From Girardia tigrina (Eukaryota), in contig MQRK01233751.1 of NCBI GenBank assembly GCA_001938485.1, forward strand, positions 7,110 through 59,261: a stretch of 52,152 nt of DNA, read 5' to 3'. The number at the start of each line of letters is the position of its first letter. Position 1 is the stretch's first letter. The position numbers and the translations under genes are program-made. Positions 3,384 through 47,790 of the stretch are shown in pieces. The notes beneath the pieces were generated by a model, which was not told the DNA's origin, made no database searches, and saw only the letters and a list, made by a program, of their open reading frames with translations.

Positions 3384-3661
3384 GTTTAAAAAAATTTTCT
3401 GCGGTATTTATTTTTTAAATAAAATTCCAATGTTATCTATGAATCGAGCTTTATAGTTTATTTGACTTCACTGCAGATTTTATTACCAATAAAGGAGGAG
3501 GTCAGGACGGGCAGTTTATGCAGCAATATTCCTGATAATATTCACATTTGCCAACCATTTAATGCTGCTACTAGTGTGTTGAGAATGTGGCATAATGATC
3601 TTCCGTAAATTTAATGCACATTATTTCTTCATCGAAGTGAATATTTTCTCGATTACTAATA

Positions 3662-4509: not shown

Positions 4510-4974
4510 TTAGAGTCGTGTTTTTTTGAGTCTCATGTTCTTTAAAAAAACATAATTAAAAAGGAAATTTTCAAAAAATATTTGACCAATTTTTTTTATG
4601 ATAAAAACATAAGTTTCTTTAACATTCCCTATATATACTTCTACAAACTGATCGAAATTCCATGTCTTATTTTTGATATTCACACAATATTTAAAATCTT
4701 GTTCTTTAATAACTGAAAATATTCTCATTTCTTCAGAATTCAGAAAACTACATTTATAAAAATCAATTTTTTCTACACAAACCATCCCTTTAAATTCATA
4801 TTCGTTGCCTTTTAAACTAATGGCTTGGTCGATATTCTTCATATAACTTCTTTGTAAATGAAATTCATTTGTGCACTTAAAAATTAAAATTTCGGGATAA
4901 TTTTTAACATCAGGGAAACTTTTTAAAATAACACTTGATTTATGTTTTTTTAGAATGCTAAAAAAGTCTTGCAT
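4510..4974 (-). CDS. 154-aa ORF, possibly a C-terminal fragment of an inactive USP (USP53/54-like) domain
   Basis: Open 465-bp frame in very AT-rich DNA. The order PEILIF ... YEFKGMVC ... WNFDQFVEVYIG ... YVFIIKK resembles the USP His-box region, but the catalytic His is absent. Identification is tentative. Confidence 0.35.
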   Translation of the reverse strand: MQDFFSILKKHKSSVILKSFPDVKNYPEILIFKCTNEFHLQRSYMKNIDQAISLKGNEYEFKGMVCVEKIDFYKCSFLNSEEMRIFSVIKEQDFKYCVNIKNKTWNFDQFVEVYIGNVKETYVFIIKKIGQIFFENFLFNYVFLKNMRLKKTRL

Positions 4975-5132
4975 TTCGATTTTAGGAATAATGAGCTTAT
5001 GTGATCATTTTTTCTTTATTAAATTGTCTTTTAGATGTTAATATTTCAGTATAATAATTATTTATATAATAATTATTATACTATTATAATTAGTATAATA
5101 ATTATTTATATCAGTATTATAATTATTTGTCT

Positions 5133-6002
5133 TCATTCTTACCGGGCCCGGCTCTCTCTTTAGTTGACGGACCCTAGCATCTTCCAAATTGAGGGACCTC
5201 ACCATCCGGTTGATGGTGTAACTGATCGTCATCTGTGATTGCTTGTCTGAAATCACGAGAGATCAGCGCGTATTTTATGGCGCTAAACCAAATGAATTTA
5301 CTTCTTTAGACGATCGACGCCGAACTGGGCTATCCTTGTGATGATGCCCATTGCTCTTCTTCTGACCTCAACAGGCGCATCAATGTTTTCATAATTTTTG
5401 ACATAAAAACCAATTAATTGGTTGTAATGGGGAATATTTATTTTTTGAAGCGCTCGATCGTCCACCCTTGAAAGATATTCATTATATATTCGACAAATAT
5501 TAAATAAAGGGCACTCACAATTCTAGATATCGCTACTCATACGTCTAGAATAATTCACAAGTATTAATTAGAATAAATAATCAATAATGATCATTACTTG
5601 TGCGGCACCATTCTGTAGTTCATATAGTTTCTGAACGACCATGTCGTACCGATGCTCGAATTCGAAACTCAGTTCGATCATCCTCAGGTCTGTTGAAATT
5701 AGAGAAAAAAAGGATTTTGATAATGTGATGATAAAATATACTTGGACTTACTTTCGAGCATCGCTTGATTCATGTATGTGCCATGAATTACTATGGACAG
5801 GCCTTTTATCAGTTTTTCTAATTTTGCGACCCGCGTCGGTATGTCATTGACGTTCTTTATTGTGTTTTCAATTTTGTCTCTACCTTTTACGATACTACAC
5901 ATTTATTAGTTAAAGGAACATTGAAAGAATCAAAACTAACATTTAATCGGGTTGCAGTTGATTTGGTTGTTCTTGCTCCGCATTGTTTTTCATTTCCTCG
6001 AT
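5133..6002 (-). pseudogene. Unknown multi-exon module gene, copy A
   Basis: Homologous to 9815-10689 with the same short GT-AG introns (gttagttttg...gtgtag; gtaagtccaag; gtaatgatc; gtgagtgcc; gtaaattcatttgg). Frameshifted. Confidence 0.7.
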
Positions 6003-6238: not shown

Positions 6239-6866
6239 AATAAACGAATCAATATTAATATTATTAATCGGTATCCTTATGAGTATTGGGAATTTTCTGT
6301 ACGGATTTCTCATAAGCCGATAGGAAATTCACGAAATCAGCGATTGCGATAGAACGAGCGTCCAGTGTCGAAGGTTGATATTCACCTTACCGAAGTATCG
6401 TTTTATTTCACGAATATCAATAAATATTTTAATAAAATTCAAATAAAATAATTATTTTTTAAAATACTGATTTATCTGTTCTGTTTTGATTGACTCATTT
6501 TTCTACTAAAATAATATTTTAAACCAAATGAATTTATAAAGAATATTTTAAAATTCCAATTTGAAATATTTCATTATCATTCTAATTAATTTTAGAATTT
6601 TCAATTCCAAATAATTTTTGAAATTTGATCAGCGAATTCAACTAACTAGCTCCCCCGATATTATATTAAACTTTCTACTTTTCCTAATTTAACTATCTTT
6701 TCAAATACTAATATTTTAATAAAATTCAAATAAAATTATTATTTTTTAAAATTTAATATTTTTTTTATATCGAGAGAATCGAATAACACTTTGTCTTTGA
6801 ATTTGTTGCCGATAATCGCTGTTGCTGAAAATTCATTTGATAATTTAATGGGGAAATATACGTGCA

Positions 6867-7280
6867 CTAACTTGGTGGATCGATATATGTCCTCCATATA
6901 TCGTGTGACAGTTTTTCTTTCATTTGTTCCAAAATGAGAATTGGTGTCATGCGTCTGGAAAGATTCGTATTAATATTGTATTGTTGTATTGATGTGCTCA
7001 TATATAGGATTTTGTCGCTATAATGCCAAAAAATATCAGACTTGATCAATAATAAGACTTTATCAATAATAAAATAGTGATCAGTACGACCATCAACTTC
7101 AATTGTTGTTTTTAAATCCTTTGATATTTTTTCGAAAATATCAAGTCCAATTTCTTCTACGACTTCCCGTCGAAAGCAATGGTCAGGAAGCTCATCCTTC
7201 TCCATTTTCCCTCCCGGGAATTCCCAACGTGTTGAAAGAAATACCTTGACCATTCTTAAATTGTCTGATATTTTTTCCAT
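6867..7280 (-). pseudogene. DCP2: DCP2-like Nudix exon in a chimeric ORF
   Basis: Perfect Nudix box GGKMEKDELPDHCFRREVVEEIGL (Gx5Ex7REUxEExGU), preceded by STRWEFP and followed by DIFEKISKDLKTTIEVDGRTDHYFIID, collinear with the DCP2 catalytic domain. The 3' part switches to Box A-like (WHYSD) and then module-like sequence. Confidence 0.75.
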
Positions 7281-8000
7281 AATATCACATTCTAAACTTT
7301 AATGAGCTTCTTAATGACATGAATATTATGGCACTAAAGTAAATCAACAAATCGTTCACTGTTAGGAATTTCACTGATTGAAAAAAGCCACATCCGATTG
7401 TTTCGTGTTAAAAATCAGAAAATTTTGAGAACGATTCAAATTTCAAATAAAAAACAAAAATTTCTCTTTTTCTCAATCTCTTTCAATCAATTTTTCTCGA
7501 ATTCTAATTTCAATTTCCAATCGAAATAATTCCGCAAAATTTTTAAATCAGAAAAAACTGCTATGATTTTTCAGAATGCCATTCAAATTGTAACATCTAA
7601 TAATGAAAAAATATTTTTTTTGCTAAACCAGTCTAACAATAATTGTTCCTAAACGCAACATTCATAATTTTGAGCAACATTTTTATTTTAGCTTTGATCT
7701 GAAACTTTCCATTTTTCAACAAATTTTATTGTTTTCACCTGCTCAAATACTTTATAATTTTATAATAAAATTGTGAAAAGAATTGGTTTTTTGTTGATTC
7801 ACATTATTATGGAATTTTTCGGCGTTTGTTTAATCGAATCATTTTGTTTATATTTGAGCGTAAAAAATATTGTTGACAAAAAAAATAATTGCGTGATCGA
7901 GTTTTGTGAATTTAAAAAAAGAAATAATAAAATTATTTTCGGCGCGAAAGGGTTTTTGATTTTTTGCTTGCAATTCGCCATTCTCAATTTTCAAATTTTC

Positions 8001-8880: not shown

Positions 8881-9814
8881 CTTCAATGGAACGATTTTTT
8901 GACAACATTACTTACATGCTTGTTGGTTTTTTATTTGGAATCGCGTGAGCATTCTGATGATTGTACACTTAAATTCAAGGAATACTTTAAAATTCTGTAC
9001 AATGAACTTTTACTTATTCAATTTTTTGGTGGTTTTCCTCATTGGCTTTTCTTTTTTATTGTACGTTTAACCTTTCACACCATTTGATGAATCTGTACAG
9101 TAAATTTTCTGTCGGTTTTTGATGAGACAATAGAGACAACTCGCTCCTATTTCTTGATAATTAAATAATTAGTTTAGTAAATAATTTTTTTGAAAACATT
9201 CACTTGCACAATCTTTCAAAATATTAACTCGTTTTTACCTTTTTGATGACGTTTTAAATTAACTTTCGCGCTTGTAAATTACTGATTCGTATCTATTTTA
9301 AATTAGAGATTAAAACAATCAAGGTGTAAAGAGTAATATATCCGCTTAATTCTTAATAATTATTCCTACATGAATTAATATACAACAATAAAATATCCAA
9401 ATATTTTGCAACACGAATAATTTATTAAAAATAATTTTCATGATTTGAGAATTTCAAATGGAATAAAGGGCTCTCACAATTCCAGATATCGCTGCTCATA
9501 CGTCTGGAATAATTCGCATGAGTATTAATTGCAATTAATTCATAAATAATCACAAATTAATTAATAAATATTCACAAATTAATTCATAAATAATCACAAA
9601 ATAAATAAATTAATTTAGAAAATAGAAAGTAAGAGTAACAATTTTTATTTTTATAAACAATAATATTTACATGGGTTTCGTCACAAGAATATTATTGTCC
9701 TTGATAGAAAAAACAGTAATTATCTGCGTTCATTGGAGGATTATTCGCATTTAAAAATGCCAAACCTGTGTTCTAGAATTTACATAATTAATACGCAATT
9801 ATAATCATTTGTCT

Positions 9815-10689
9815 TCATTCTCTAACCGGTGCTTCTAAATTCAGATCACCATAGATCATCAACTCTTCAAAAACGAGGGAGACCATCAGCCGGTTGATGG
9901 TGTAGTTGATAGTATCACTCGAGGTATCGTCTGAAGTCACGAGAGATCAGCGCGTATTTTATGGCACTAAACCAAATGAATTTACCCATGGGATTATTTC
10001 GGAGGCGATTGACGCCAAATTGAGCATTCGCGGTGATGATGCCCATTGCCGTTCTTCTGGCCTCAACAGCCTCGGCAATGGTATTATTTTTTGGCTTTCT
10101 TTGTAGAATTTTAATACGCGTTCCTTGTGCGGAACACTAGTACTGGCACGCCTGCAAAGATAATGATTAGCTATGCGACACAAATCGAATAAATGGCACT
10201 CACATTTGGACGTATCGCTGCTTGTACGTCTGGAATCATTCACACGAGTATTAATTGGAATAAATAATCAATAATGATCATTACTTGCGTCGTACCATTC
10301 TGCAGTTCATATATTTTCTGAACGGCCAAGTCCCACTGAACTTCATATTCAAATGCTTGCTTCAGTTTTTCTTCTTCTGAAATTGCGGAAAAACGATTTG
10401 ATTTATTTGATGATAAAATATACTTGGACTTACTTTCGAGCACCGCTTGATTCATTGATGTGCCATGAAATACTACGACAGACCTTTTATCAGTTTTTCT
10501 AATTTTGTGACCCGCGTCGGTATGTAGTTGACGTTCTTTATTGTGTTTTCAATTTCGTCTCTACCTTTTATGATACTACACATTTATTAGTTAAAGGAAC
10601 ATTGAAAGAATCAAAACTAACATCTCATCGGGTTGCAGTTGATTTGGTTGTTCTTGCAATTGCACCGCATTGTTTTTCATTTCCTCGAT
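9815..10689 (-). pseudogene. Unknown multi-exon module gene, copy B (best preserved; 6 exons)
   Basis: Manual splicing of 5 GT-AG introns gives IEEMKNNAVQ...IIKGRDEIENTIKNV...KLKQAFEYEVQWDLAVQKIYELQNGTTQTYKQRYVQMRASTSVPHKERVLKFYKE...EAVEARRTAMGII...DTINYTINRLMVSLVFEELMIYGDLNLEAPVRE*. Two small frameshifts are needed. Confidence 0.75.
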
Positions 10690-11224: not shown

Positions 11225-11400
11225 GTTATGGCTATAATGCCATCACATTGCTTCTATTATGGCAGCAAGTTTTCCCGTAGTGTTTTTACCTGGTTGATAA
11301 CGTCTACAAAAAAATTATAATAATGAAAAAACACGAAGGAACCTTAAAAATAACTTTCTAGTATAATATTTCCCAGATTTCCTCACGAATCTGATTCATT
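11225..11400 (-). pseudogene. DCP2: DCP2-like Box A fragment (exons 1-2)
   Basis: EEIWEILY / RYQPGKNTTGKLAAIIEAM*WHY, homologous to 12311-12690, with an internal TGA. Confidence 0.65.
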
Positions 11401-11882
11401 TTATGATAAATAACAATAACAATCCAGTAACAATCTAAAATAACAATCCAAATAACAATATTCAAAATAAGTAAATAAAGAAAAACTCATCAAACTTTTA
11501 ATTTTGAATAAAACAGACAGTATATCATCTTCAGATCATTCAGCTCTTTATGTATTAAAATATTGATTCCTTTTATTGCTTGATGTATAGATACTTTCTG
11601 ATTAGAAGTATCTGCAGTGACAATACGGTATATTCTTGTCTAGCAATTCTTGATCAACCTTCTACAATCAATCAATCAATAATTGTCATTATCATTAAGG
11701 AGCAATTTACCGAGTCTTTATTTATGGTCATCAGACGCTCGTGCTCTATCTTCATCGAATATATCAGGTGGTTGAGCGTGAAGTTCACAATATATCGTGA
11801 TCGTTCAACACCAAATCAAAAGATGGTGTTGCGTAATTACGATACTGGAATCAAATCAATTTACCCTTGATTTCTTAACCCT

Positions 11883-12243: not shown

Positions 12244-12310
12244 TTAAAAATAAGTATAATATTATAATATATATTATAAAAATAAATAATTAATACAATC
12301 GATGGTGTCA

Positions 12311-12690
12311 CTTCTTTACAAGTTTTATTTAAAATTATTGCGTTATTTGCTTCTCCTCATTCCACTGCTTTAACTCATTTTCCCACGAGGTCAAATTTGT
12401 AAATTTATGGCCATATTTTTGAAAAACTGTAAATAAAATAAATTTCGCGTAATGTAAATTAATTTATGCTTACATTTGTGTCCAAATTCCTCTAGTTTGA
12501 TGTGTTGTGAATTCCTATCATCCACATAATTGTCTGTATAATGCCACCACATTGTTTCTATAATGGCACCAAGTTTTTCCAAAGTTTTTTTAGCTGGTTG
12601 ATAACGTCTACAAAAAATTATAATAATGAAAAAACACGAAGGAACCTTAAAAAACTTACTAGTATAATATTTCCCAGATTTCGTCACTAA
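12311..12690 (-). pseudogene. DCP2: DCP2-like Box A/regulatory domain (3 exons)
   Basis: Spliced: DEIWEILY / RYQPAKKTLEKLGAIIETMWWHYTDNYVDDRNSQHIKLEEFGHK / FFQKYGHKFTNLTSWENELKQWNEEKQ..AIILNKTCKE. This aligns to DCP2 LDDLCSRF..FQIELAHWFYLDFY..IRDFAKAVF..WKEYK..GAIILDETLE. A stop forms at the exon 1/2 junction and exon 3 has a deletion. Confidence 0.75.
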
Positions 12691-14199: not shown

Positions 14200-16050
14200 A
14201 ACTCACAAACACGTTTACATCTGATAGGTTTATCCACTTCAAATGACACTTTGGTTTAATTGTATTGTCGGTCCAGTATTGTCGTAAAGAGCGACTCAGA
14301 ATGCTTTCTTCACCGAAAGGGTCAGCTTAAATTACCTGGTGATGTGCGGTCTCCTGTCAATAATATCTAATAGTGGAGATTGTTTTCTCCTAAACGACCC
14401 TTTAAAAAATTAGGCAATAAGTGCAGAAAAAATTCGTCTGTTACAATCTATGCCTTCTTCATATTTAGATTCTTTAACAATAATAAATTTAAAACAAACG
14501 AATCGATTTTGAACAATGACCGGGAGAATAAGAACTCTGATCCATCAAACTCAACAAGAACCATCAATTTGTTGCACATTTCACAAATTAATAATAAGTT
14601 CAATATGGCACATATCAGGCTTCCAGGAACGAGATTATTAGCTGACGATAAGTTTATTGATAAACCCTGGATAATCGAACAAAAAAGCTCCTGATAAAAT
14701 CTTAAGCCCACGAAAACTTAAAAAACGTGCATATGACGAGTTTTGTTTGAATGAATTAATTGTTTCTGAGCGATTTGAATTTTTGTTAAAAGGAGTCGCC
14801 ATCGTTAATTTTTTTAAAAAAGGAAAAATAAATTTAATTGAAATCAGGAACGGCTTTGTTCTATTGTTCTTTTTTGCATTGTTAAAAGTCACAATAATAA
14901 ATACAACTGTCAACAATTCAGAAGTATATCAATATAAACAATTATTGCTTCGAAACTTTGTAATTTTTTGAAGAATCCATGGAACATTAAATAAATGTCC
15001 AAAACGTATCTCTCATAGTTAATCTGAACGAAACAATAAAAAATAATAAAACAGTAGTATAATTATTTGGTAGATAGATCTTATAGGATAATTTTATTCT
15101 TGGATTTGATCTATAATTTCCTAAAATTTTGATTAAAATGGTGAAAAATGGTCCAAGTCGATGAATTTTTGAACAAAAATTTGTTAAAATTTTATAAATT
15201 TAAACCACAGATATTTAGCGTTTGGTAGGGATTTCGGTAGATATTCGTTGTTGATGTTATACCGAAATACCGACATTTTATGGAATCCTTTTTCTCAGTC
15301 AAAGTTTCTAATATTTATTTTGATAGCAATTCTAAGTTTCAACGTGACGAATTACATGCATAGAACCCCTGTTTAGCTTATATACAAATCTCTAATCTCC
15401 CGATCACACCATGGTAAGGTGAAGGTACAATAATGTAGAAAATCTTTCACAGCATTGGCGTACTTGGTTGTGAGCAATAAACTCTGTATCATTTAGAAAT
15501 CATAAATAGACAATACAGAGCCTAATGTCAATTTTAAGATATGGGGAAACAACTGTTCAAATTCAAAATGGCTACAAAATATATTTTATTCAAATTCGAT
15601 AATAACCTTGAAATGGTGTCATTCGTCCATTGGCCCTAGCGGCAGTGATTATGCAATACTTTTTGTACTTTAATTTAACATTTTAGTAGTAATTTATTTT
15701 TAGTAGTCATAAGACTCATTTTAAAATATTTGTGTCTTAGCATTTTTTTAATATTTATTTAATCCATGTTATAAATTTGGGGTACCTTTTCATTCTTTTC
15801 CAGAATGCAGACTGACTAGCAATATATATAGGGTTCTACATATTGATATGACACTTAGGAGACCATCTTTTAATGATCTCATAATCTATCGCAGTCTAGT
15901 CGAATAAATAAACGATAATTATCACGAAATACAGACAATAGAAAATAAGTGACAATTTTTATTTTCAAACACAATACTATTTGCATGTTTGTCCTCACAA
16001 NNNNNNNNNNNNNNNNNNNNNNNNNNNNNNNNNNNNNNNNNNNNNNNNNN

Positions 16051-16094
<44 letters not shown>

Positions 16095-16370
16095 TTCTAC
16101 ATATTGATATGAAACTTAGGAGACCATCTTTTAATGGTCTCATAATCTATCGCAGTCTAGTCGAATAAATAAACGATAATTATCACGAAATACAGACAAT
16201 AGAAAATAAGTGACAATTTTTATTTTCAAACACAATAATATTTGCATGTTTGTCCTGACAAAAATGTTATTGAATATTATTGTCCTTGTTTGAAATGACA
16301 AAAACATCTTTGCTTAAGGTTTATTAGCTTTTATAAATGCGACCAAGGTGTTCTAGAATTTATATAATTA
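14200..16370. repeat. Repeated block D (unidentified degenerate sequence, probably coding)
   Basis: Parts recur at 19912-20025, 21125-21330, 25720-26395, 32020-32870, 33385-33500 and 34520-35825. Shared strings include gaattacatgcatagaa.ccctgtttag, aactctgtatcatttaga and acttaggagaccatcttttaat. Confidence 0.8.
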
Positions 16371-16394
16371 ATACACAATTATAATTATTTGTCT

Positions 16395-18112
16395 TCATTC
16401 TCTTACCGGTTTTCCTTCATTCGGCTGATTTTCTCCATAGATCATCACAAAAAACTGAGGGACATCATCAGCTGGTTGATGGTATAATTGATCCTATCCC
16501 TCGAGGTGTCATCTGAAGTCATGAGAGATCATCACATATTTGGTGGTACTGAACCAAATTAATTTATCCATTGTATTCTGGAGGCGATCGACGCTGAATT
16601 GCGCTATCTTTGTGACGTTCCCCATTGCCATTTTGCTGGCCTCAACGGAACGTTAAGTTCGTTTTCTTTATAGAATTGTAATAAAAGTTCCTTGTGCGGA
16701 ACACTCGTACTGTCACGCCTGCAATGATATACATTATATATGCGACACAAAAAATCAAATAATAATCATTAGTTGTGCCGCGCCATTCTGCAGTTCAGGT
16801 AGTTTCTGAACTGCCAGGTCCCACTGCAGTTCGATTTGGAAACTTTGCAATCTGCTGACCGTCTGTTGAAATTAGAGAAATCGATTTTGATAATTTGATG
16901 ATAAAATATACTTGGACTTACTTCCAATCTGCTGTTCCTTATTATAATTGTCGTAGATATTCTTCGCCAGTTTTCTTTTTATTTCTAGCATTGTAACTTC
17001 CAGGTCAATCGAATGCAGTTTGCCTAATGCCGATGTAATTCGATCTCGGCATTTCACGACTCTGCACATTTATTCGTTAAAGGAACATTGAAGGAATCAA
17101 AATTTAACATGTCATATGAAGGCAGTGGATTTGGTTGTTCCAACTGCCCTGCATTGTGTTCCGTTTCCCCGGTCTAAAATTAAATACAAATTAAAATACA
17201 AATATTAGTAATCGAGAAAATATTTACTTCGATGAAGATATAATGCGCATTAAATTTACGGAAGATCATTTATGCCATTATCTCAACACCCTAGTATATT
17301 TGGTAGACTTAAAAAGTGCATCTCTCTATCGCGCATCTGGAATCATAAGACAAGTCGCGTATTCGCTGACACTGGAATCAAATCAATTTACCAATTTTAA
17401 CTACTTTAATCCCGTATCTGCACAAGGACGCGATTGTGGACATGACTGTCATTCACAATTCAATGCGCTGATCATCACTCTTGTTGGCAAAATGTTCCTC
17501 AATTTCTGTCTTCTGGGGTATTTCCTTGTTGGCGAGCCTGTAAATAAATTGGCAATTTGTACCACACAAACACATTATTCGACACTCACATTTCTTTGAA
17601 TCGCTCCTCATACGTCTGGAATAATTCGTATTAATTTCAATTAGATGGTGAAGTGATCATTATTACCTTCTCTTGTCCGTTTAATTGAAACAGCCTCTCA
17701 CTGATCAAGTCGTACTGTATTTCGTTTTTGAATTTGTCGGCGATAATCTCTTCGTTTGTTGAAGAAAATGATATTTTATGGTGACATATACGTGAATCTA
17801 CTTCCCGACAATGTTTCATTAATGTACGTCTCCGAAAGTTTGCCTCTCCTTTTTTGCAACTCACGGATTGCCTTCACTTTATTGTTACGGTTTAAAAATA
17901 TCAAATATAGCGCTTTCAATTCCTGATTTTGCGGCCTCTACCCTGCACATTTATTCTTTAAAAATAATTCAGGTAAACTAAGCTAACATTTGCAATTCTT
18001 TAATTTTCTTTGGCTTCTTTCGCTTCTTCTTGTTCTGTACCTCTTCAGTCTTATTTTCAAAACCTTGATTATTCGTGCTTTCATCAAATGGATTATTTTC
18101 CTTTTCCCCAGG
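16395..18112 (-). pseudogene. Unknown module gene, copy C, with two tandem diverged modules
   Basis: Module 1 (18112-17230) and module 2 (17173-16395) share exon order and intron boundaries (at|gtta..gtgcag; ttccag|acgta; aaat|gtgagtg; g|gtaaattga). They are joined by a GT-AG intron at ~17174-17227. Stops, frameshifts and a deleted micro-exon in module 2. Confidence 0.7.
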
Positions 18113-18504
18113 CTAAAATCAAATGCAAATTAGAATTTGGCAATATAAAAAAAAACAATTTAAACCATGCCGAATTAAAAAAATAAAACAATTTTATTTG
18201 ATAATATATGAACAAATATAAATTATTTTAGTTTAATAACAATTTTAATTTAGGGTTTTAAACATAAAAACAAAACTTGAATTTCTTTATATCTTCTATT
18301 GTTTTGCTCAATCATTTTTAATAAAATGCCAAGTTTATATTTTACTTATATAATTCTAAGTGTTTCCATTTTTTCTTATTGAGTATATATAATAATATAT
18401 AATATATATAATATACATAAATTATAGATATATAATTAATTAATTAATTAATAATCATAAATTAATTAATAAATAATAACAAATTAATTCAGTCGATGGT
18501 CTCA

Positions 18505-18875
18505 CCTCTGTACGAGTTTTATTCAAAATTATTGCGCGAGCAATGGGAATTTTTCGCTTGCCCTTATTCCACTGCTCTAACACCTTTTTCCAATTGGGCA
18601 AATCTTTAAATTTATGGCGATATTTGTCAAAAACTGTAAAGAAAATAAATTTCGATTAATGTAAATTAATTAAGCTTACATTGTCTTCCAAAGTCCTCTA
18701 GTTTGATGTCTGGTATTTTATAATAATTTGTCAAGGACCATAACATCGTTTCTATAATGGCATAAATACTCCCTTTCTATTTTTTATTTGGTTGATAACG
18801 TCTACAAAAGAATTCGAATAATTAAAAAACACGAATGAACCCTAAAAAACTTACTGATATAATACTTCCAGAATT
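18505..18875 (-). pseudogene. DCP2: DCP2-like Box A fragment
   Basis: Homologous to 12311-12690. Exon 3 reads WKKVLEQWNKGKRKIPIARAIILNKTRTE (cf. DCP2 [25 protein letters not shown]). Confidence 0.7.
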
Positions 18876-19222: not shown

Positions 19223-19580
19223 GGTCTCACCTCTGTACGAGTTTTATTTAAAATTATTGCGCGAGCAGTGGGAGTTTTTCGTTTGTCCTTATTCCACTGC
19301 TCTAACACCTTTTTCCAATTGGGCAAATCTTTTATGGCCATATTTGTCAAAAACTGTAATGAAAATAATTTTCGCTTAATGTAAATAATTTTACGCTTAC
19401 ATTCACTTCTAAAATTCTCTAGTTCGATGATTGAGGAATTCTCTTTCTCTACATAATTGTCGGCATAAATACCACCACATTGTTTCTATTATGGCACTAA
19501 GTTTTTCCAAATTTTGTTTATCTGGTTGATGACGTATACAAAAAATTATAATAATGAAAAAGCACGAAGGAACCTTAAAA
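19223..19580 (-). pseudogene. DCP2: DCP2-like Box A fragment
   Basis: RHQPDKQNLEKLSAIIETMWWY, plus an exon 3 nearly identical to the 18505 copy. Frameshifted. Confidence 0.7.
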
Positions 19581-19870
19581 AAACTGGATTCTCCAAAGAA
19601 ATTTTCCATTTTTCAAAGGTATATTGATATTTCGGAGCNNNNNNNNNNNNNNNNNNNNNNNNNNNNNNNNNNNNNNNNNNNNNNNNNNNNNNNNNNNNNN
19701 NNNNNNNNNNNNNNNNNNNNNNNNNNNNNNNNNNNNNNNNNNNNNNNNNNNNNNNNNNNNNNNNNNNNNNNNNNNNNNNNNNNNNNNNNNNNNNNNNNNN
19801 NNNNNNNNNNNNNNNNNNNNNNNNNNNNNNNNNNNNNNNNNNNNNNNNNNNNNNNNNNNNNNNNNNNNNN

Positions 19871-20637: not shown

Positions 20638-20840
20638 TTGCGCGACTTGTTGAGCGTCTGCACCGACCAGGAGTGTCGCATCAAGCTGTGCTTGGTGCTG
20701 GCTTACGCGAGGGACAGCCTGTACCAAGTTATCAAATACATACAGCACGATATCCACAAGTTAGTGTGCCAGATCCTACAATCCTCCGGCGGCGGCAACG
20801 CCGAGATCCTGATCTCGTCGATCCGGATCATCAGACTTAT
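20638..20840 (+). pseudogene. GC-rich coding-like fragment, possibly ARM/HEAT-repeat
   Basis: Abrupt ~200-bp GC-rich island with a G/C-ending codon frame LRDLLSVCTDQECRIKLCLVLAYARDSLYQVIKYIQHDIHKLVCQILQSSGGGNAEILISSIRII. The ARM call rests on pattern only. Confidence 0.35.
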
Positions 20841-20884
20841 TATTATTACAAAATGAACTTATTGAACTGTTTGAAATGAATAAT

Positions 20885-21542
20885 GAAGTATTTCTATTCT
20901 ATCCCCCCTCTCAAGAATCTTGCGCGCGTCCATATATTATCAATATTATTTTATGATTTCAATAAATTTTACCTCGATAAATTTCCATTCTTTCTCGTTA
21001 ACAATTGGCGTATTCTCCCAATTGATTCCTTCCATCGCATGTTCCAATGCCGCTTTCTTATCGCCATTGTTTATTTCCAGTGCCGTGACCCATCTCTTGT
21101 CGAAAAAAAATTGAAAAAAAAGTTAAAAAGTTAATTAAAAGTCAAAATAATAAATACAACTGACAACAATTGATTGGTGGGGGTGCAAAAGAAACCCCAG
21201 CCAAATTCATCATTTATCAAATTTCGATTTAAATAGTATTTTTCAGTTGTTTCAGGCACTAAGGAATGGCTTTGTTATATTGTTCGATTATTAAAAATCA
21301 AAATAATTAATACAACTGACAACAATTGATTAAAACAAATGTTGGGATGGGATTTCTTTTGCAAAAGAAACCCCAGCCTCTACAAACTCCTTAATTATGC
21401 TGGTATCACAAGACTGGATACCAAAATTTTGGATACTAAATTCACGTGATTCGCTTAACAAAGCGAATGGCGTTAAACGCATGCATTAGATGACGACGTT
21501 CCTGCCCTTCTTACATCTTATCCCTATTTACAAACACATCGG

Positions 21543-21587
<45 letters not shown>

Positions 21588-23011
21588 NNNNNNNNNNNNN
21601 NNNNNNNNNNNNNNNNNNNNNNNNNNNNNNNNNNNNNNNNNNNNNNNNNNNNNNNNNNNNNNNNNNNNNNNNNNNNNNNNNNNNNNNNNNNNNNNNNNNN
21701 NNNNNNNNNNNNNNNNNNNNNNNNNNNNNNNNNNNNNNNNNNNNNNNNNNNNNNNNNNNNNNNNNNNNNNNNNNNNNNNNNNNNNNNNNNNNNNNNNNNN
21801 NNNNNNNNNNNNNNNNNNNNNNNNNNNNNNNNNNNNNNNNNNNNNNNNNNNNNNNNNNNNNNNNNNNNNNNNNNNNNNNNNNNNNNNNNNNNNNNNNNNN
21901 NNNNNNNNNATGTTACCTCGATAAATTTCCATTCTTTCTTGTTTTGTGTATTATTACAATCGATTCCTTCTGTCGCTTGTTTCAATGCTTTTTCCTTATT
22001 ACCTTTGTTTCTTTCCAGTTGCTTGACCCATCTCTTGACGATCCTAAATGCGAATATCGTTACACAAAAATTATAAGACAGTGCTATCTTTAAACTGACC
22101 TGGTCAACGGAATCGAATACAAGAAATCCCATTTGTTCATTTTTTACAATCATTAAAATTATATGACCTTTCTCTTGTTGAAGTATTTTTATTCTACCCC
22201 CGTCAAAAATCTTGCGGCGTCCATATATCATCAATATTATTTTGAAATTACAATTATTAATTTTTACCACGATAAATTTCCATTTGTTCTTGTTATCAAT
22301 TGGCTTAAACATAAATAACAAGAAAAAATAAATAAACAAATAAGTTCATTAAAAGTATATGATCTTTTTGTTATTGAAGCATTTTTATTCTACCCCCCTC
22401 AAGAATCTTGCGGGCCTCCATATATTATGAATATTATTTTGAGATTTCAATGAATAAATGTTACCTCGATAAATTTTCATTCTTTCTTATTTTAAATATG
22501 AGTATTCTCCTAATTGATTCCTTCCATCGCAGATGCCAATGCTGCTTTCTTATCGCATTGGTTCTCCAGTTCCTTGACCCATCTCTTGACGATCCTAATA
22601 GGGAATAGTTACGAAAAATTATGAGTTAGTGTTATCATTAAACTGACTTGGTCAACGGAATCCCATATACGAAATCATTGCGGTTGCTGTTTCTATCACA
22701 GTCCTCAATTGATTCCGTCAAATCTATCAATTTAAACCACCCGATCAACTGAATAATAAGATGTCGTTGGTGATGTGAATAACAATCGAGGTAACGCTCA
22801 TCGACCCCTTGACAAAATATTTTAAATACTAAGATTAAAGTTAATTTCGGATAGTAAATAAAAGAAAAGAGCAATTGTTTTTATTTATAGTTAGAGTCAG
22901 CATTCAATCCATGGGTGTCACGTTGTAAACGTCATTTATTAAGGCACAAGAAAATTTTTTGAGAACTTTTGGTAAAGAAATCTATTTCACAAATTCCATG
23001 GGTTTCAATAT

Positions 23012-23057
<46 letters not shown>

Positions 23058-23240
23058 CAATACAATTTATTATTATTATTATTTTGAAATTTCAATTAAT
23101 AAATTTTACCACGATAAATTTCCATTTTTCTTGTTATCAATTATCAATCTCCGAATTGATATCTTTCAGCACGGATGCTAATTCTGCTTTTTTATCGCCA
23201 TTAATTCTCAATTCCTCGACCCATTTCTTGACGATAATAA
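20885..23240 (-). pseudogene. DCP2: Tandem array of five DCP2-like Box B/C-terminal cassettes
   Basis: Units at ~20885-21100, 21915-22120, 22175-22290, 22370-22747 and 23095-23240. The best unit splices to LIGWFKLIDLTESIEDCDRNSNRNDFVYGIPLTK|IVKRWVKELE, matching DCP2 NIEWFSIEKL...KFFMAIPFIRPLRDWL. Confidence 0.7.
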
Positions 23241-23270
23241 ATGCGAATATTAATACACAAAAATTATCGA

Positions 23271-23794: not shown

Positions 23795-24230
23795 GGGGAG
23801 TTGGTCCCTGCCATGAACTTCAATTGTTATAAATAAATCTTCTGATATTTTTTCCTTAATGTCAACACCTATTTCCTCCACCACTTCACGCCTTATGCAA
23901 TCAGTTGCCGTCTCATTCTTCTCACGTTTACCTCCTGGAATTCCCACCGTGTTGACCGGTATCCTTTTACCATTAGCACCTGTGATAAAAGGTCTTTAAT
24001 GGTCTTTGTAGTAACATAATGTCGATTCTAGTATTGATGTGCTCATATATAGGATTTATTTAAATTTAATTAATTAAAATTATAAACTTATTCTTATTCT
24101 TATATTGTGTACCAAACTACTATAGTTCGATGTCTGGTACATTCGCTTAATGGTCTTTGTGGTACAATAACTTAAATTCTAGTTTAGCAGCAATTATTCC
24201 TTTATTTTTGTCTGGTTGATATCGTCTAGA
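23795..24230 (-). pseudogene. DCP2: DCP2-like degenerate Box A exon plus Nudix exon
   Basis: cag|VLMVKGYRSTRWEF(fs)GGKREKNETATDCIRREVVEEIGVDIKEKISEDLFITIEVHGRDQ at 23980-23795 (cf. DCP2 VLLVQGY..SGWGFPKGK..E...DCAAREVFEETGFDIKD). RYQPDKN exon at ~24225. Confidence 0.8.
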
Positions 24231-24931: not shown

Positions 24932-25276
24932 CTACATTACACTAAATAATATTTTAAAAAGTTGTTTGAAGGGTTCAATCAAAATTAAAATACTACATAA
25001 ACATACATCGATCTCTTGTTTTGCGAATGGATGGAACGACGTACTGCAATCGACTTGATCAATAATAAAATAGTGATCATGACGACCATCAACTTCAATT
25101 GTTATTTTTAAATCCTTTGACATTTTTTCCAAAATATCAAGTCCAATTTCTTCTACGACTTCCCGTCGAAGGCAATGGTCGGGAAGCTCATCCTTCTCCA
25201 TTTTCCCTCCCGGGAATTTCCAACGTGTGGAAAGGAATCCATTGATCATTCTTAAATCGTCTGATATTTTTTCCAT
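24932..25276 (-). pseudogene. DCP2: DCP2-like Nudix exon (open frame)
   Basis: STRWKFPGGKMEKDELPDHCLRREVVEEIGLDILEKMSKDLKITIEVDGRHDHYFIIDQVDCSTSFHPFAKQEID, then a gtatgt donor at ~25005. Paralogue of 7060-7340. Confidence 0.8.
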
Positions 25277-27103
25277 AATATCACAACCTAGGCTTTAATG
25301 AGCTTCTTAATGACATGAATATTATGGCAGTAAAGTAATTAGCATCTAAAAACGCAGCCAACATATGCTCATTTTGATTTATATACAACGGTCAAACATC
25401 TAGGAAGTCTATATCAATCGGTTCAATTTCTTCTGTAAATCAAAAAAATTATAAAAAACTGTAATGTACCACTTACACACCTTAAGGGCTTGTTCAATGC
25501 AGTGTCCAGGTTTATCTAGAGACTGACTGGTTGTATCAAAGTCGCAATTATTTGTCGCTGCTCTTCGTGCTGGTTCCAATTTTTAGTTAATAGTAGTAGT
25601 AATTTAGTCCCTAATATACAACAATAAATAAATATACTAAATTAACCTATTCTCTTGGTTAGGTGAATTTAGTCCCTAATATATAACCGAAAACGTAAAT
25701 TATCAATATAGGTTTATTTCTTTTTTTAACATAAAAAAATTATATAAATATAAACAATTATTGCCTCGAAAGTTTGTAATATTTCAAAGACTCCATTGAA
25801 CTTTAAATAAATGTCCAAAACTTATCTTTCAAAATTAACCTGAAAGAAACAATAAAACAGAAGTAATATAATTATTGGGTAGATAGTTGACTACCCAAGG
25901 ACTCTTGGTATTCTTTGGTTTGATCTATAATTTTCTCAAAATTTTGATAAAAATAGTGAAAAATGGGCCAAAATCGATGAATTTTCGATGATTTTCGTGC
26001 AAAAAGTTGGTAAAATTTAATAAATTTAAACCACAGGTATTTAGCGTTGTAAAGTGATTTCGGTAGATATTCTTTAAAGTTGTTTTACGACTTACAGTAT
26101 TAATCGTCATTGATGTTTTCGAAGTGAGGACGGGCTTGTTTGATATCTGTGTCGGTTGGTGATACCCTATGCCGAAATACCGACATTCCATGGAATCCTT
26201 TTTCTCAATCAAAGTTTATAATATTTATTTTGATAGCAATTCTAAGTTTCAACTTGACGAATTACATGCATAGAAACCCTGTTTAGCCTAAATACAAAGT
26301 CTGTAATCTCCTGATCACAATGTTTCACAGTATTGGCATACAGGGTTGTGAGCCATAAACTCTGTATCATTTAGAATTCATAAAAAGACAATATTGATTA
26401 AAAAAAATAAAAATTGATGAAAAAAAGTGTTGGGATGGGATTTCTTTTGCAAAAGTAACCCCAGTCTCTACAAACTCCTTAATTATGATGATATCAGAAG
26501 AATTTGGATACCAATATTTTGGATACTAAATTCACGTGATTCGCTTAACAAAGCGAATGGCGTTAAACGCATGCATTAGATGTCGACGTTCCTCCCCTTC
26601 TTACATCTTATCCCTATTTACAAACACATCGGATTGAGTATATATATATAATATATAATAGAAGTAATATATATATATATATATATAATCAAATATTATT
26701 TGGTCTTTATTTCAAGTAAGTTATCATTTCCTTTCAATCATTTTTTTTCGTTAAATAAAATAATTGTCGTAAAATTACGTTCTAATCGAAGTCAAAGTGC
26801 AAAAAACGAACGTCCGAAGTGCGATTCAAGTCATATATCTTTATAGATTTGCTCCCAAAAACAAGTAGAGATAGAAAGAGAAGTGAAATCGCAATAATCG
26901 AATATTGATGTCGCGATCCGGCATCAAGATCATATGAACTTATCAGCACTCACTAACGCTCACCGCTCACACGAACAAATTGACTTATGTGTTTCGTTGG
27001 TTCTCGCTTCTTTTTCGTGTTCTTTATCTTCTCTGCATTGTGTTGCTGTCAATTATTTGTGATTATTTCATCTTTCGATGGCGCAATTTATATTGTAGAT
27101 TCG

Positions 27104-28008: not shown

Positions 28009-28653
28009 GTTAATTTTTATTTATGAGATATTTTTGTAAATATGGTATTGCATTTTGACTTTTTCCAAATTAAGTATCAACATTTCCTGCAGAAAAGGTT
28101 TACTTATATGTTTCATGAAATTATTTAGAATAACTTAATTTTTGGATCTCTTCCCAGTCGGTTGAAAAAGACTATTTTAGAACTTTTAGAAATTGTAGTG
28201 GAGATTCTTTTAAATTTCCATTACGACTGTAGTAAGTTCATTAACCATATCTGCTGTCTTCAGGTCTTATTCACACTTTTGTATGAAAATATTTTAAAGT
28301 TTTCATTATCGATTTGATGAGTTTCAAGGTACTTGAAAAATAATTTTATAAAATATTCTGCAAATAAGATCATGGTTTATTTATTAGCAATGAGAAAACA
28401 TAGTTCCGCTTTTATAAGGTTTTAGATTATGTAGGTATTTTAATCAATTTAAAAATTCGCATTGGAGTAAATAAATCATTAAAACACAAAATCATTACTT
28501 TTACAAATAAATTTTTATAAAAACTAACATTAGAACTTGCAAAATTCGGAAGTGGGTTATAAATTTTGCGTATTAGCTACCATAACACAATTAATTCATG
28601 TTTAGGAACTTATAAAAGTTATTTGAGTTTTTAGTTATGTGGCTTCTAGTTCT

Positions 28654-28758
28654 TGCTTCCTTTCTCTGGATCTTCGCCTGGACTTCCACAATTAAATTGT
28701 TGGGATCCACCTCCAACTTGATCGTTTTTCTTGAAATGGTCCAACGAAAAACTTGGTT
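28654..28758 (-). pseudogene. Ubiquitin/ubiquitin-like N-terminal half fragment
   Basis: NQVFRWTISRKTIKLEVDPNNLIVEVQAKIQRKEA versus ubiquitin [35 protein letters not shown]. The C-terminal half is absent. Confidence 0.75.
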
Positions 28759-30029
28759 GGCCAGGCGGGACTTCGATCTGTATTTTGAGTTTAAGGAATT
28801 TGAATTTTTACCATTATATATATTATTATCATACCGAGCGCAGGAAAACCAATCAAACATTCCTCAAAAACAATTTATCAAGAAAACATCACAGTGAAAG
28901 CTGTGAGGGATGAGTCGTCCTCGAGTACTAGACCCATTATTTAAAAGGGGCAGTCTCTCAACTCTCGGTCCTTCACTCAATAGACTTAGCACCGATGGTG
29001 AGAAACCCAATTAATTAAATTAAGTGATTTATTTGTTATTCATTTCACATATGAAGCCCCAAAAATTAAAACATACATCATTTAAAAAACATTTCCAAAC
29101 AAAGCACACCTAACCCTAACCCTACAAATTTCTCCTCCAAGGCGGATATTTTGCCAACAGCAGTAAAATTCACGATTCCATATAACCCACAAACCCACGA
29201 TTTACTTTTCATAATATTTTCATTTTGTTATATGATAATTGCATTATTAAGGGATTCTGCAAAATTATTCGTTAAATGCACAAATGTATAATTCACACTT
29301 TTAAGACATCAATATTCAGAAGAAAATGAATGATAAAAATTATAGATACAACAAAAAAATTCAAAAATTTAATCTTAAAGTAAAAACGAAATAAATAAAA
29401 ATAATATAAATCGAAAAAATGAAAAAATATGTAATAATAAATATAAATTATTTCACTATAAATTGAAAAAATTAATGCGTGGCCTTTTGTGATTAGCTGG
29501 ATCTTTGACTCGTTTGTGTGTTTCAGTAATGTATTGACCGATGAGGAATTTCGGGGTAATGGTTATCATAGCAACGGTAACCATGAAGGTTAATTCTAAT
29601 ATATGAATCTTGAGCTCCAAGTAATAAAAACTTCCTTATAGTCTTTAACAATAGGCTAGAACAATATAATTGGATGTTATCATCATGCCGTAGCATATTG
29701 TTCTCGAATAGTGCGATGTTTATGTCATTTAGTTTTCTTTTTTCAATGTTTCTTCTCTTTACTTTCACAGTGAAAGTGTTCTTTTCTTCTGTTTTTCGGT
29801 CTATGGAAATTTTTACACCAAAAGAAGTTCATGTATGTATATTAGGAAAAGTATATATTAGAAATGTGTATACAGCAAGGTGCACTCAGTACAGTCTGGC
29901 AACACACAAAAATATTGACTCATACACACAAATATATTGACACATATGAACGGTGACTAGATTAAATTTGTCGTTGTGCATTAATTTCAATTCAATTATT
30001 CTGTATAATGGTTGTATAAGCAGCTTTGA

Positions 30030-31946: not shown

Positions 31947-32873
31947 TTTAATTTTCATTTATTTAAACACAAATATTTCCTTAATTATCAAATTTAAAAA
32001 ATAATAAAGAAATTCCAAAATTTAACCAATAGTGGAGATTGTTTTGTAAAAAAATGACCCTTTAAAAAAATAATTTTTTAATTAATTAATTTTTTAGGGA
32101 GAATAAGAATTCGGATCCATCAAACTCAACAAGAACCATCAATTTGGTTCAGATTTCACAGTACATGGTTGTGAACCATAAACTCTGTATCACTTAGAAA
32201 TCATAAATAGACAATACAGAGTCTAATGTCAATTTTAAGATATGGGAAAAAACTGTTCAAATTCAAAATGGCTGCAAAATATCTTTTATTGAACTTCGAT
32301 AATTACCTTTAAATGGTGTCATTCGTCCATTGACCCTAGCGACAGTGATTATGCAATACTATTTGTACTTTAATTTAACAATTTAGTAGTAATTTATTTT
32401 TAGTAGTCATAAGACTCAATTTAAAATGTCTTAGCATTTTCTTTAATTTTTATTTAATCCCTGTTATAAATTTGGGGTGCCTTTTCATTCTTTTCTAGAA
32501 TGCAGGCTGACTTCATTAGCAATATATATAGGGTTGTGCATATATTGATATGAAACTTAGGAGACCATCTTTTAATAGCCTGCATTAGTTCTCTGAACCC
32601 TACATTATGTCCTGATCTGTCGCAGTCTAGCTGAATAAGTAAATCGATTATTACCACGAAATACAGACAATAGAAAGTAAGTGACAATTTTTTATTTTCA
32701 AGCGCAATAATATTTAAATGTTTGTCCTCACAAAACATTATTGAATATTATTGTCTTTTTTTGAAATAACAATAACATGTCTCCATGTTTGCTGAAGGTT
32801 TCTTGGCTTTTATAAATGTGACCAAGGTGTTATAGAATTTATATAATTAATACACAATTATAATTATTTGTCT

Positions 32874-33385
32874 TCATTCTCTTACCGGTTCTCCTTCATT
32901 CGTCTGATTTTCTCCATAGATCATCACCTCCTCAAAACTGAGGACATCATCAACGGTTGATGGTATAATTGATCATATCCCTGGAGGCGTCATCTGAAGT
33001 TATGAGAGGTCATCACATATTTGGTGGCAATGAACCAAATTAATTTATCCATTGCATTCTGGAAGCGATTGACGCTGAATTGCGCTACCTTTATGATGTT
33101 TTTCATTGCCGTTTTGCTGGCCTCAACAGCAACGTTAAGTTCGTTTTCTTTATAGAATTGTAATACAATTTCCTTGTGCGGAACACTCGTACTGTCAGGC
33201 GTGCAAAGATATTCATTACATATGCGACACAAATCGAATAAAGGGCTCTCACGTTTCGATATATCGCTCTTCGTACGTCTGGAATAATTCAGAATTAATT
33301 GGGATAAATAATCAAATAATAATCATAACTTGTGCCGCACCATTCTGCAGTTCAAATACTTTCTGAACTGTCAGGTCACACTGCA
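32874..33385 (-). pseudogene. Unknown module gene, copy D (3' half)
   Basis: STSVPHKEIVLQFYKENELNVAVEASKTAMKNIIKVAQFSVNRFQNAM. Closest to module 2 of copy C, and retains the micro-exon that copy C lost. Confidence 0.7.
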
Positions 33386-33584
33386 TTCTTTTCTAGAATG
33401 CAGGCTGACTTCTTTATTAATATATATAGGTTTGTACATATATTGCTATAAAACTTAGGAGATCATCTTTTAATGGTCTACATTAGTTCTCTGAACATAT
33501 AATATTATAAGTATAATAAATATATAAATATAATATTATAATATATATTATAAAAATAAGTAATTAATACTTTCTTTATAATAC

Positions 33585-33985
33585 TATCTTTACGAGTTTC
33601 ATTTAAAATTATTGTGTGAGCCGTGGAAATTTTTGCTTCTCCTCATTCCACTGCTTTAAGTCATTTTTCCACGAGGCCAAATTTGTAAATTTATAGCCAT
33701 ATTTTTGAAAAACTGTAAATAAAATAACTTTCGCGTAATGTAAATTAATTAACGCTTACATTTATGTCCAAACTCCTCTAGTTTGATGTGTTTTGGATTC
33801 TTATCATCCACATAATTGTCGCTATAATGCCACAACATTGCTTTTATAATGGCACCAAGTTTTCCCGAAGTGTTTTTATCTGGTTGATAACTTCTAGAAA
33901 AAAAATTATAATAATGAAAAAATACGAAGGACCCTTAAAAAACTTACTCGTATAATATTTCCCAGATTTCCTCATCTGATTCATT
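33585..33985 (-). pseudogene. DCP2: DCP2-like Box A (3 exons)
   Basis: EEIWEILYE / SYQPDKNTSGKLGAIIKAMLWHYSDNYVDDKNPKHIKLEEFGHK / FFQKYGYKFTNLASWKNDLKQWNEEKQ. An extra isolated exon 3 lies at 34395-34500. Confidence 0.75.
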
Positions 33986-36484: not shown

Positions 36485-36705
36485 GGTATTCTTATACCAT
36501 TTTATACAATTCCCTTCGAAAGTGTCCATTATTAAGTAATATGCGAATTTTCTTGGTACTTGATACTAAAAGACAATTCGGGATCCATTATTGTAGTAAA
36601 GTCGATGCCCAATTTTCCGACTCCTCGAATGGCGCCCTGTCGGATGCCCTCACCTTCTTCGATTTCGCCACTTGGTTGTTTACAGCCTTTCACCATAATT
36701 ACCAG
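36485..36705 (-). pseudogene. Second, more divergent Nudix-like exon
   Basis: VIMVKGCKQPSGEIEEGEGIRQGAIRGVGKLGIDFTTIMDPELSFSIKYQ is a degenerate Nudix box collinear with the DCP2-like exon. Its 3' part recurs at 23580-23670. Confidence 0.55.
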
Positions 36706-37189
36706 CGATCAATAACAAATTAATGAATTATTAAAATTAAAATATTTTTAAAATAAAGAAATATAAAAATCTCGATAAATTATGCAAAATTTAATAAAAA
36801 TAAATAAATAATTAAATAAATAAAAATAAATAAATTATCTCATGGTAAAAATTTGTCCAGGAAGAATCAGTGCATCGATTCTATTTACGCAACAAGTTCT
36901 GCCTTATTAATTTCATCCAGTTAAAAAGTCTGGAAAAATATTTAAATAATTTAAAACACAAGCGAACAATAAATATATTTGTATAATTTATCCCATATGG
37001 CCGGGGAAATCGAAGCCATTTATATTTTTATTTTAAAAGGATTGTAATTATTTAAACAAAACTTTTATTATATATATTTATATTCAAATATTATTATTAT
37101 TTATAAATTGTTCAGAGCTTTGGTCATTTCATAAAATTTTTGAATTTAAAATCACTGTGAAATACTTTCTCGATAAAGACAACATACAT

Positions 37190-42000: not shown

Positions 42001-42269
42001 AAAGATAACCAATGGAAATCCATCGGTCGCACACGTGTTTGTATTCATGTCTGGTCAATTATGAGAGAGGTTAGAGTCTGTGAGAGCCAACATTCAAACA
42101 ATTATCCTATGCTATGCAATTATCTTAAGTAGAGTTGTACCATATATCAGCTAACACAATATACTGTCTTTTATTATATTTTACACTGACGGGTTGTATT
42201 TTATATGTACAATTAACTAAATAATATTTTTAAAAGGGTTGAATCAGTATTATAAGAAAACATAGATTA

Positions 42270-47040: not shown

Positions 47041-47449
47041 TAAATGTATGATATACTTTACAGTATTTTTAAATTTTTATTTTATAAATTTTAAAATTCA
47101 AACATTTTAATGAGTTCGCAACAATCGTAGCATAAATCCTTGACAATTTTGGTTGATGTTTTCAAAAAGGCTAGATTTCAGTTAATTTCCTAAATAGAGT
47201 GGTAAATCCTTAATTCGGTTTTTACAGAAAAATCCGTTCCCCATTAATTACTACAAAATCAACCTAAAAATTTATTGAAAAAAAACAAAAAATCTGCAAT
47301 TATAAAAATAAGAACTGAAAAATATAAATTAAAGTTTTTCAAATTTTAAAACTCGGACAAAAATAATAAAAAAATCTAAATTAAAATATTCAAATAAAAT
47401 ATGTAGATAGTTTATTTAAAACATGTTTGTTTTTATTAATCAAAATCGA

Positions 47450-47790
47450 GTGAAAAATTGCTTGTGAGTGGATCTCGCCGAGTGCAGTAAGTCCAGTTTC
47501 TTTCATAAAGATGTTTCTAAGGTAATTGACTTTCGATAATGTTTCTTTGTGAAAACTGGTAGATGAGATAGGGTTAAGAAAGAAACAAGTACATGCTATG
47601 GGGTTAATCACGAAGAGTGTCCAATGTACATTTCGGATGTCGATGGGGATGAATACAAGTTTACAGCTTCTAAGATATGTTGTGTTGATCGCGAGCATCG
47701 AAAAGGACGATTGGGTATAACAGAAGATAGAAGATTAGTGATGGTGACGATCTTTGTGACTCCAAATTTGCTTGAGTGTGCAATATGGTT
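47450..47790 (-). pseudogene. Ulp1/SENP (peptidase C48) fragment, possibly TE-derived
   Basis: KLVFIPIDIRNVHWTLFVINP...CFFLNP matches the C48 motif (I/V)FIP.....HW.L.VI......Y.DS. The catalytic Cys region is missing. Confidence 0.65.

Follow-up and report, generated by a model that had tools for sequence, protein, structure and literature searches.

Several described gene families diversify in ways that resemble what is reported here. PMC3679737 describes plant type I R genes as chimeras whose introns are homogenised while their exons are not. Among the wtf meiotic drivers, recurrent recombination diversifies the family (PMC13160552), and in three-finger toxin genes the process called ASSET swaps exon segments for distinctly different ones but leaves the intron segments very much alike (PMC2474615). 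The nematode klmt-1/kss-1 toxin-antidote modules, as set out in bioRxiv 2024.09.16.613340, pair a duplicate of a conserved gene with a fast-evolving partner, and the two have been repeatedly co-duplicated. As a loose parallel only, PMC13756089 places a virus-derived array near DCP2 in yeast.

The window analysed here, a stretch of 52,152 nucleotides from Girardia tigrina, contains members of an orphan gene family that shares features with each of the first four systems. As in plant type I R genes (as described in PMC3679737), orphan paralogs are clustered, chimeric, homogenised in their introns and diverged in their exons, and many are pseudogenes; both chimeric paralogs and introns more alike than exons were found, although a control gene set behaves partly similarly on the second point. 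Unlike type I R genes, the orphan lacks NB-ARC, LRR and TIR domains, is only about 220 aa long and predicted to be all-helical, and sits in an animal-type genome. Like wtf, the family is lineage-restricted, multi-copy and diversified by recombination; unlike wtf, it has no membrane helices by hydropathy, is linked to a second gene and gives no sign of poison/antidote isoforms. In its mode of evolution the orphan resembles both type I R genes and the wtf drivers, but it belongs to neither. With the three-finger toxins it has similar introns and swapped, differing exons in common, but it lacks their signal peptide, has few cysteines and is not predicted to be secreted. The klmt-1/kss-1 modules offer the same combination of conserved-gene duplicate and fast-evolving, co-duplicated partner, but the orphan partner is not an F-box protein.

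My favoured reading, held at roughly even odds (about 0.5), is that these are recombining, chimeric orphan paralogs that have been co-amplified with Dcp2-like genes, are likely engaged in genetic conflict, and may act as variable binding partners that aim or restrain the enzymes.

Two tandem pseudogenes

The minus strand carries two homologous exon-intron units, one at 18168-17300 and the other at 17173-16300, and the peptides quoted from this region in a preliminary description of the window were found within them. Copy 1 ('module 1', 17300..18168) is a subfamily A pseudogene. Its first exon consists of the ATG only (18168-18166) and is followed by exons at 18112-17988, 17942-17802, about 17749-17667 (acceptor uncertain), 17615-17590 and 17537-17392, and by a truncated exon 7 at 17336 to about 17300. 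Exon 2 encodes a basic cluster, KKKRKKPKK; such a cluster, a feature of subfamily A, may be a nuclear signal. Besides the truncation of exon 7, copy 1 shows a frameshifted exon 3, a non-canonical acceptor at exon 4 and a stop within the frame of exon 6.

Copy 2 ('module 2', 16300..17173) belongs to subfamily B and is both a pseudogene and a chimera: exons 2-4 lie 5-13% from those of L013, a copy found in the genome-wide search, and exons 6-7 lie 6-9% from those of copy D, another copy in the window. Its exons were placed at 17173-17109, 17061-16922 and 16862-16773, then at 16718-16568, 16512-16407 and 16352 to about 16300; exons 4 and 6 are frameshifted, two donors are lost, exon 5 is deleted and the first exon is missing. 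A repeat of 94 nt (17203..17296), with an inverted 91% match to 3569-3661, separates the two copies and occupies the expected place of the end of copy 1 and the first exon of copy 2. Alternative genetic codes tried on this stretch yielded no coherent long ORF.

The preliminary description read these units as two modules of one transcription unit, encoding a protein in which the module is repeated in tandem. The units do run head to tail on one strand, about 130 nt apart. However, module 1 has its own first exon, with ATG immediately followed by GT, relatives with open frames have their own start and end in their own stop, every intronless copy in the genome holds a single unit, the four matches in protein databases are only 101-220 aa long, and both window units are disabled, so that a tandem repeat-domain protein is scarcely credible. 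The region instead contains, with high confidence, two dead tandem copies of a separate, single-domain, eight-exon gene. The exon order and intron boundaries claimed to be shared were borne out, since intron positions, phases and lengths are homologous across copies; the ATG exon (18168-18166) and the last exon (from 16352) had been overlooked.

Further copies, also on the minus strand, lie elsewhere in the window much as first described. Copy A (5143..6002) has two in-frame stops and is a chimera, with exons 2-3 differing by 5-8% from copy B and exons 4-7 by 31-39%, the switch of type falling at about intron 3. Copy B (9690..10689) has seven exons and two frameshifts and has lost its ATG exon; a 96% identical counterpart is carried by contig C225351. 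Copy D (32750..33385) retains only the 3' part of the gene (exons 4 to 8), with damaged splice sites. The exon relics reported near 6770-6960, 9465-9530 and in the vicinity of 11675-11864 are likewise present on the minus strand: subfamily-A exons 3-4 at 6742..6969, directly behind a Nudix exon; the end of intron 4, exon 5 and the intron 5 donor at 9462..9530; and intron 6 with a subfamily-A exon 7 at 11675..11864. None of the five orphan copies in the window is intact: each is disabled by frameshifts, stops, deletions or the loss of splice sites.

Gene structure and splicing across the genome

The genome searched (1.43 Gb, AT-rich and fragmented into 255,254 contigs) has orphan matches on 98 contigs, a count that is a lower bound and includes haplotype duplicates. 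These amount to about 100 pieces (102 after removal of redundancy), which fall into four subfamilies. A full gene has eight exons and encodes about 195-235 aa. In relatives the first exon is a single codon, ATG directly followed by the donor GT, then an intron of about 50-60 nt, and the reading frame ends in its own stop; the start of module 1 is common to L059, L195, L171, L003, L011, L058 and L006. Introns are 42-62 nt long, and neither their codon positions nor their phases change between subfamilies; their successive lengths (about 46/56/52/52/55/43-54 nt) correspond from copy to copy.

Thirteen of the 102 non-redundant pieces, on 12 contigs, are intronless, and two of these are fully open (L088, 193 aa, and L155). 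When predicted junctions were compared with the intronless copies L088 and L085, 17 of 36 tests were ungapped, the failures including diverged pairs and misplaced model junctions, and each of the five internal junctions was covered at least once. Because the intronless copies join exons at the predicted junctions, I take the predicted splicing, and with it the conserved splicing scaffold proposed earlier, to be real. Since these retrocopies were inherited, I also infer that the orphan is expressed in germline or stem cells. One open intronless copy (L155:5831-10000, contig C193581) was inserted once into a repeat, upstream of broken ORFs that resemble a Polinton polymerase and include an Endonuclease VII domain.

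Most copies are broken, but the search for intact members suggested in the preliminary description yielded open intron-bearing models in subfamilies A (L059), B (L011/L058 and L148), C (L195 and L171) and D (L089), of which L148 is without an ATG and L089 has its start outside the model. In three closely related subfamily A members (L059, L061 and L062), intron 3 is without normal splice sites yet in frame; it has apparently been turned into coding sequence.

Could the orphan be a gene of a transposon or endogenous virus, either Polinton/Maverick cargo or a Helitron capture, that gained introns? Such an origin would fit the intronless copy on C193581, which lies about 800 nt upstream of broken Polinton-polymerase-like ORFs (Endonuclease_7, E 3e-6; other motifs in these ORFs are presumably those of a Polinton polymerase), and the mosaic, same-strand exon pieces do resemble Helitron capture. 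Against it, polymerase pieces were found at only one place among 207 loci, and the C193581 flanks occur in many copies but were found next to the orphan at no other place among the 40 of 189 candidates that were scored. There is, moreover, an intron-bearing gene 87% identical to the C193581 copy, which makes this copy look like a retrocopy that landed in a repeat. The 92 flanking ORFs contained neither a Helitron domain nor a transposase that recurred, a phage tblastn search with the polymerase-like piece returned nothing, and structure models of the orphan found no viral fold match. The orphan was not found to recur at a set place within elements that have core genes and termini; cargo of either kind was rejected as a candidate, and an origin in a mobile element is largely refuted and very improbable.

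Exon mosaics and less diverged introns

Whole-gene dN/dS is below 1 in the orphan, with medians of 0.67 in subfamily B (55 pairs), 0.76 in A (35 pairs) and 0.69 in C (5 pairs), and the ratio of intron to synonymous divergence is 0.31 in B, 0.40 in A and 0.37 in C, all from pairs that share history and so are not independent. Intron interiors are about half as diverged as non-synonymous sites. When sites are split by base class, the gap persists for both A/T and G/C at codon position 2, as well as for four-fold sites that are A/T; at G/C four-fold sites it shrinks to almost nothing in some sets. The 5' flank shared by L059 and L051 (428 columns) differs by 7%, compared with 27-34% in the exons. 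As a control, the fronts of the neighbouring Dcp2-like genes give a median intron/synonymous ratio of 0.77 (97 pairs), which is noisy because several fronts are without an intron. This ratio too is below 1, and short introns may therefore be constrained genome-wide.

These values invite the explanation that the orphan is a passive passenger: a duplication-prone region would amplify stem-cell or germline genes (the orphan, Dcp2-like genes, importin-alpha and Rad51) jointly under relaxed selection, the role of the orphan would be unrelated to its neighbours, and its short introns would simply be constrained. A dN/dS of 0.67-0.76, the preponderance of broken copies and the slow introns of the Dcp2-like genes all agree with this. 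It is harder to reconcile with exon 3, of which two types stand 50-60% apart while the adjoining intron 2 differs by 0-12%, or with the scarcity of stops. A neutral simulation at 0.25 substitutions per site per lineage gives 6.8 stops, with a probability of 0.008 for two or fewer, whereas the near-full intron-bearing copies modelled carry 0-3, from which it follows that most of the divergence arose in open frames. I consider the passive explanation rather unlikely.

Exchange between paralogs is indicated by the exons themselves. Distance matrices for exons 3/4 and exons 6/7 are uncorrelated (Spearman -0.24 to 0.07), and trees of the 5' and 3' exons reject each other (AU p 1.3e-7 and 5.9e-6, from a set in which 13 of the 19 aligned copies had both halves, and in which a non-homologous exon 7 inflates the L013 branch). 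Switch points in the exon mosaics lie at or near introns. The fragmented assembly could create some chimeras, although the 3' half of copy A and copy B were both found again on other contigs. Diversification of the family by exchange is probable. The preliminary description, of a protein that diverged while its splicing scaffold was kept, was sound as to the fast divergence and the conserved scaffold, but understated the case, as it passed over the mosaics and introns that evolve two to three times more slowly than synonymous sites. Even if the orphan is not coupled to its neighbours, the family is a clean case of such slow introns, with retrocopies that record the splicing.

In the favoured reading, unequal crossover and gene conversion would run through the near-identical 45-60-nt introns, homogenising these while reshuffling old exon variants, and selection for diversity would keep the exon variants apart. 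The broken copies in the window would then be debris of this process.

Dcp2-like neighbours

Interleaved with the orphan copies are Dcp2-like genes, which the earlier reading of the neighbourhood had missed. A gene front, which runs from putative Box A exons as far as the beginning of the Nudix domain, lies at 18503..18875 (minus strand, one stop), 335 nt upstream of the copy 1 ATG, and a second at 19228..19598 (minus strand, two frameshifts). Others occupy 12296..12687 (minus strand) and 33580..33970 (minus strand, directly upstream of copy D), with a shorter piece at 11225-11367, upstream of copy B. Two Nudix exons on the minus strand, at 7053..7298 and 25052..25294, have intact Nudix boxes and match Pfam NUDIX at E 3e-9 and 4e-10, respectively, and the best solved-structure match of the former is human DCP2 (E 2.5e-8); further Nudix pieces lie at 23807-23985 and 36535-36708. 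An exon of about 220 nt, present in several copies within 20881..23267 (minus strand) and again at 41776-43944, corresponds to the final exon of the L057 Dcp2-like gene and may resemble Dcp2 Box B.

Dcp2 is normally represented by one or two conserved genes. The neighbours resemble Dcp2/NUDT20 in that an apparently Box A-like region precedes the Nudix domain, and human DCP2 is their best match among solved structures. Matches to the Box A profile PF05026 (E 5e-5 in L130, 1.8e-4 in L104 and 0.035 in the window, at the front beside copy D) all fall below the 28-bit cut-off, although the region can be aligned to other Box A members. The Dcp2-like genes differ from Dcp2/NUDT20 in number, one genome giving 72 Nudix-exon and 32 Box A matches above the cut-off; several of their catalytic boxes are altered, dN/dS is high (near 2 in some pairs) and the C-terminus is apparently short. 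Of 26 distinct matches, 12 keep the Nudix box GX5EX7REUXEEXG strictly unaltered. The 32 Box A matches, on 29 contigs, form a separate and mostly intronless set with several open ORFs of 213-235 aa and non-standard Nudix box spacing (for example L220:4035-4739, L226, L227 and L231). From their sequences, the multiplied genes in the window would be relatives of the decapping enzyme with putative decapping activity. A word-index protein search with the Dcp2-like front found no longer relatives, which is weak evidence, and a literature search, with subscription papers outside its scope, found no report of the orphan family or of a Dcp2 expansion.

Tandem repeats of the Nudix exon by itself occur in L050 and in L069 (C220688); those of L069 recur about every 620 nt. 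At L130:658-1319 and L137:2416-2877, members of the intron-bearing Dcp2-like subfamily are present in intronless, processed form, and repeated fragments of orphan exon 6 lie next to both. The hint of fusion that these two offered was set aside, the orphan piece being an exon-6 fragment only, and a single orphan-Dcp2 fusion protein was rejected, as each gene starts by itself, the Dcp2-like gene of L057 with an ATG and the orphan with its ATG exon.

Linkage and its interpretation

In independent searches the orphan was present on 11 of 49 Nudix-exon contigs, against 0.07-0.34 expected, although five of the 11 may be one array or its haplotypes; the separate Dcp2-like set, which is mostly intronless, had the orphan on none of its 29 contigs. 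Among contigs with at least 5 kb seen, Dcp2-like exons occur in 10 of 21 with an intron-bearing orphan and in 0 of 13 scored as retrocopies. All linked Dcp2-like pieces are on the strand of the orphan. A second Nudix subtype, about 45% identical to that of the window, also has orphan neighbours (L050, L054/55 and L058). Linkage with two Nudix subtypes, always on the same strand, argues against passive amplification. In its favour, 11 of the 21 larger contigs with intron-bearing orphans show no Dcp2-like exon, including those of the best open copies (L059 and L195), and the linked contigs also carry pieces of other host genes. Should the linkage be passive, the family would be an orphan cluster of the ordinary birth-and-death kind, and what was found would come down to two pseudogenes.

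The host-gene pieces include importin-alpha-like sequence in the window at 20638-20853 (plus strand; no Pfam match), at L028:2838-3083 (E 6e-15 to importin alpha) and at L150:4250-5026. On contigs of the same array there are also a Rad51 piece (L142:153-650), a protein kinase piece (L150:6234-6821) and a helicase-C ORF (L145:4666-5634).

A selfish toxin-antidote system would also account for a linked pair whose first member duplicates a conserved mRNA-decay gene: a deregulated Dcp2 duplicate would be an RNA-destroying poison and the orphan its fast-evolving antidote, with recombination yielding new specificities. The strictly intact Nudix boxes noted above are consistent with an active poison, chimerism is known from wtf (PMC13160552), and a toxin derived from fars-3 with a linked regulator, as described in 10.1101/2024.09.16.613340, is a precedent. 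Pfam searches, however, found no F-box or other known antidote domain in the orphan, and there are orphans without Dcp2-like neighbours and the reverse, which makes this explanation quite improbable.

As to the favoured reading of recombining paralogs co-amplified with Dcp2-like genes, its functional part is the more tentative: the orphan may be coupled to these genes as a variable binding partner in RNA defence. The predicted helical bundle would bind the Dcp2-like paralogs or their RNA targets and act against viral or transposon RNA, the least supported step of the proposed mechanism. The most novel version, a two-gene RNA-conflict cassette in which dozens of fast-evolving Dcp2 paralogs are combined with a new helical family whose binding specificity comes from swapping old exon variants through the homogenised introns, for antiviral or anti-transposon decapping or as a selfish poison-antidote pair, is unlikely. 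Were coupling real, R-gene-style diversification could be tested in a small protein that is not a receptor, and dozens of diverging Dcp2 copies partly linked to an exon-shuffling orphan would suggest that capped RNA is the object of a conflict so far undescribed.

The orphan protein

That the protein contains no known domain, as first stated, agrees with the sequence searches. The best Pfam hit for full-length members (P0001, P0002, P0004 and L134) had an E value of 0.08 and the best PHROGs hit 0.008, in one of 15 members, neither amounting to a family match; a PDB profile search gave 0 matches at E 5, and Pfam found no NB-ARC, NACHT or LRR domain. A profile search of 1.84 billion protein representatives returned the four matches of 101-220 aa mentioned above, none informatively named, and a word-index protein search with one orphan exon found no longer relatives, again weak evidence. 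The family appears to be unnamed.

Two structure models (pLDDT 68 and 73) are both all-helical. The profile and Foldseek check proposed in the preliminary description gave nothing at E 0.001 with Foldseek, and the best fold matches overall are generic helical bundles (Z 8.1, rmsd 2.2, 86 aligned; Z 5.8, rmsd 4.9, 108 aligned). Matches to the Translin/C3PO fold were weak (E 0.15, TM 0.30; Z 5.1) and were discounted as evidence. The signal-peptide check, also proposed there, detected neither a signal peptide nor a membrane helix by hydropathy (maximum 0.6-1.25 over 19 aa). Of the original label, a lineage-specific helical repeat-domain family, the lineage restriction and the helical character hold, while the repeat domain does not.

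Other features of the window

The window also contains relics of mobile elements: a PiggyBac-type transposase (DDE_Tnp_1_7) at 44255-45997 (minus strand), a Ulp1/C48 protease at 47393-47734 (minus strand) and an LTR-type reverse transcriptase at 48600-52152 (plus strand). Repeated or coding-like pieces without a Pfam match lie at 4513-5004, 14451-14717 and 28594-28863 (all minus strand) and at 14922-15562, with its copies; two of these may resemble the end of a ubiquitin protease and ubiquitin.
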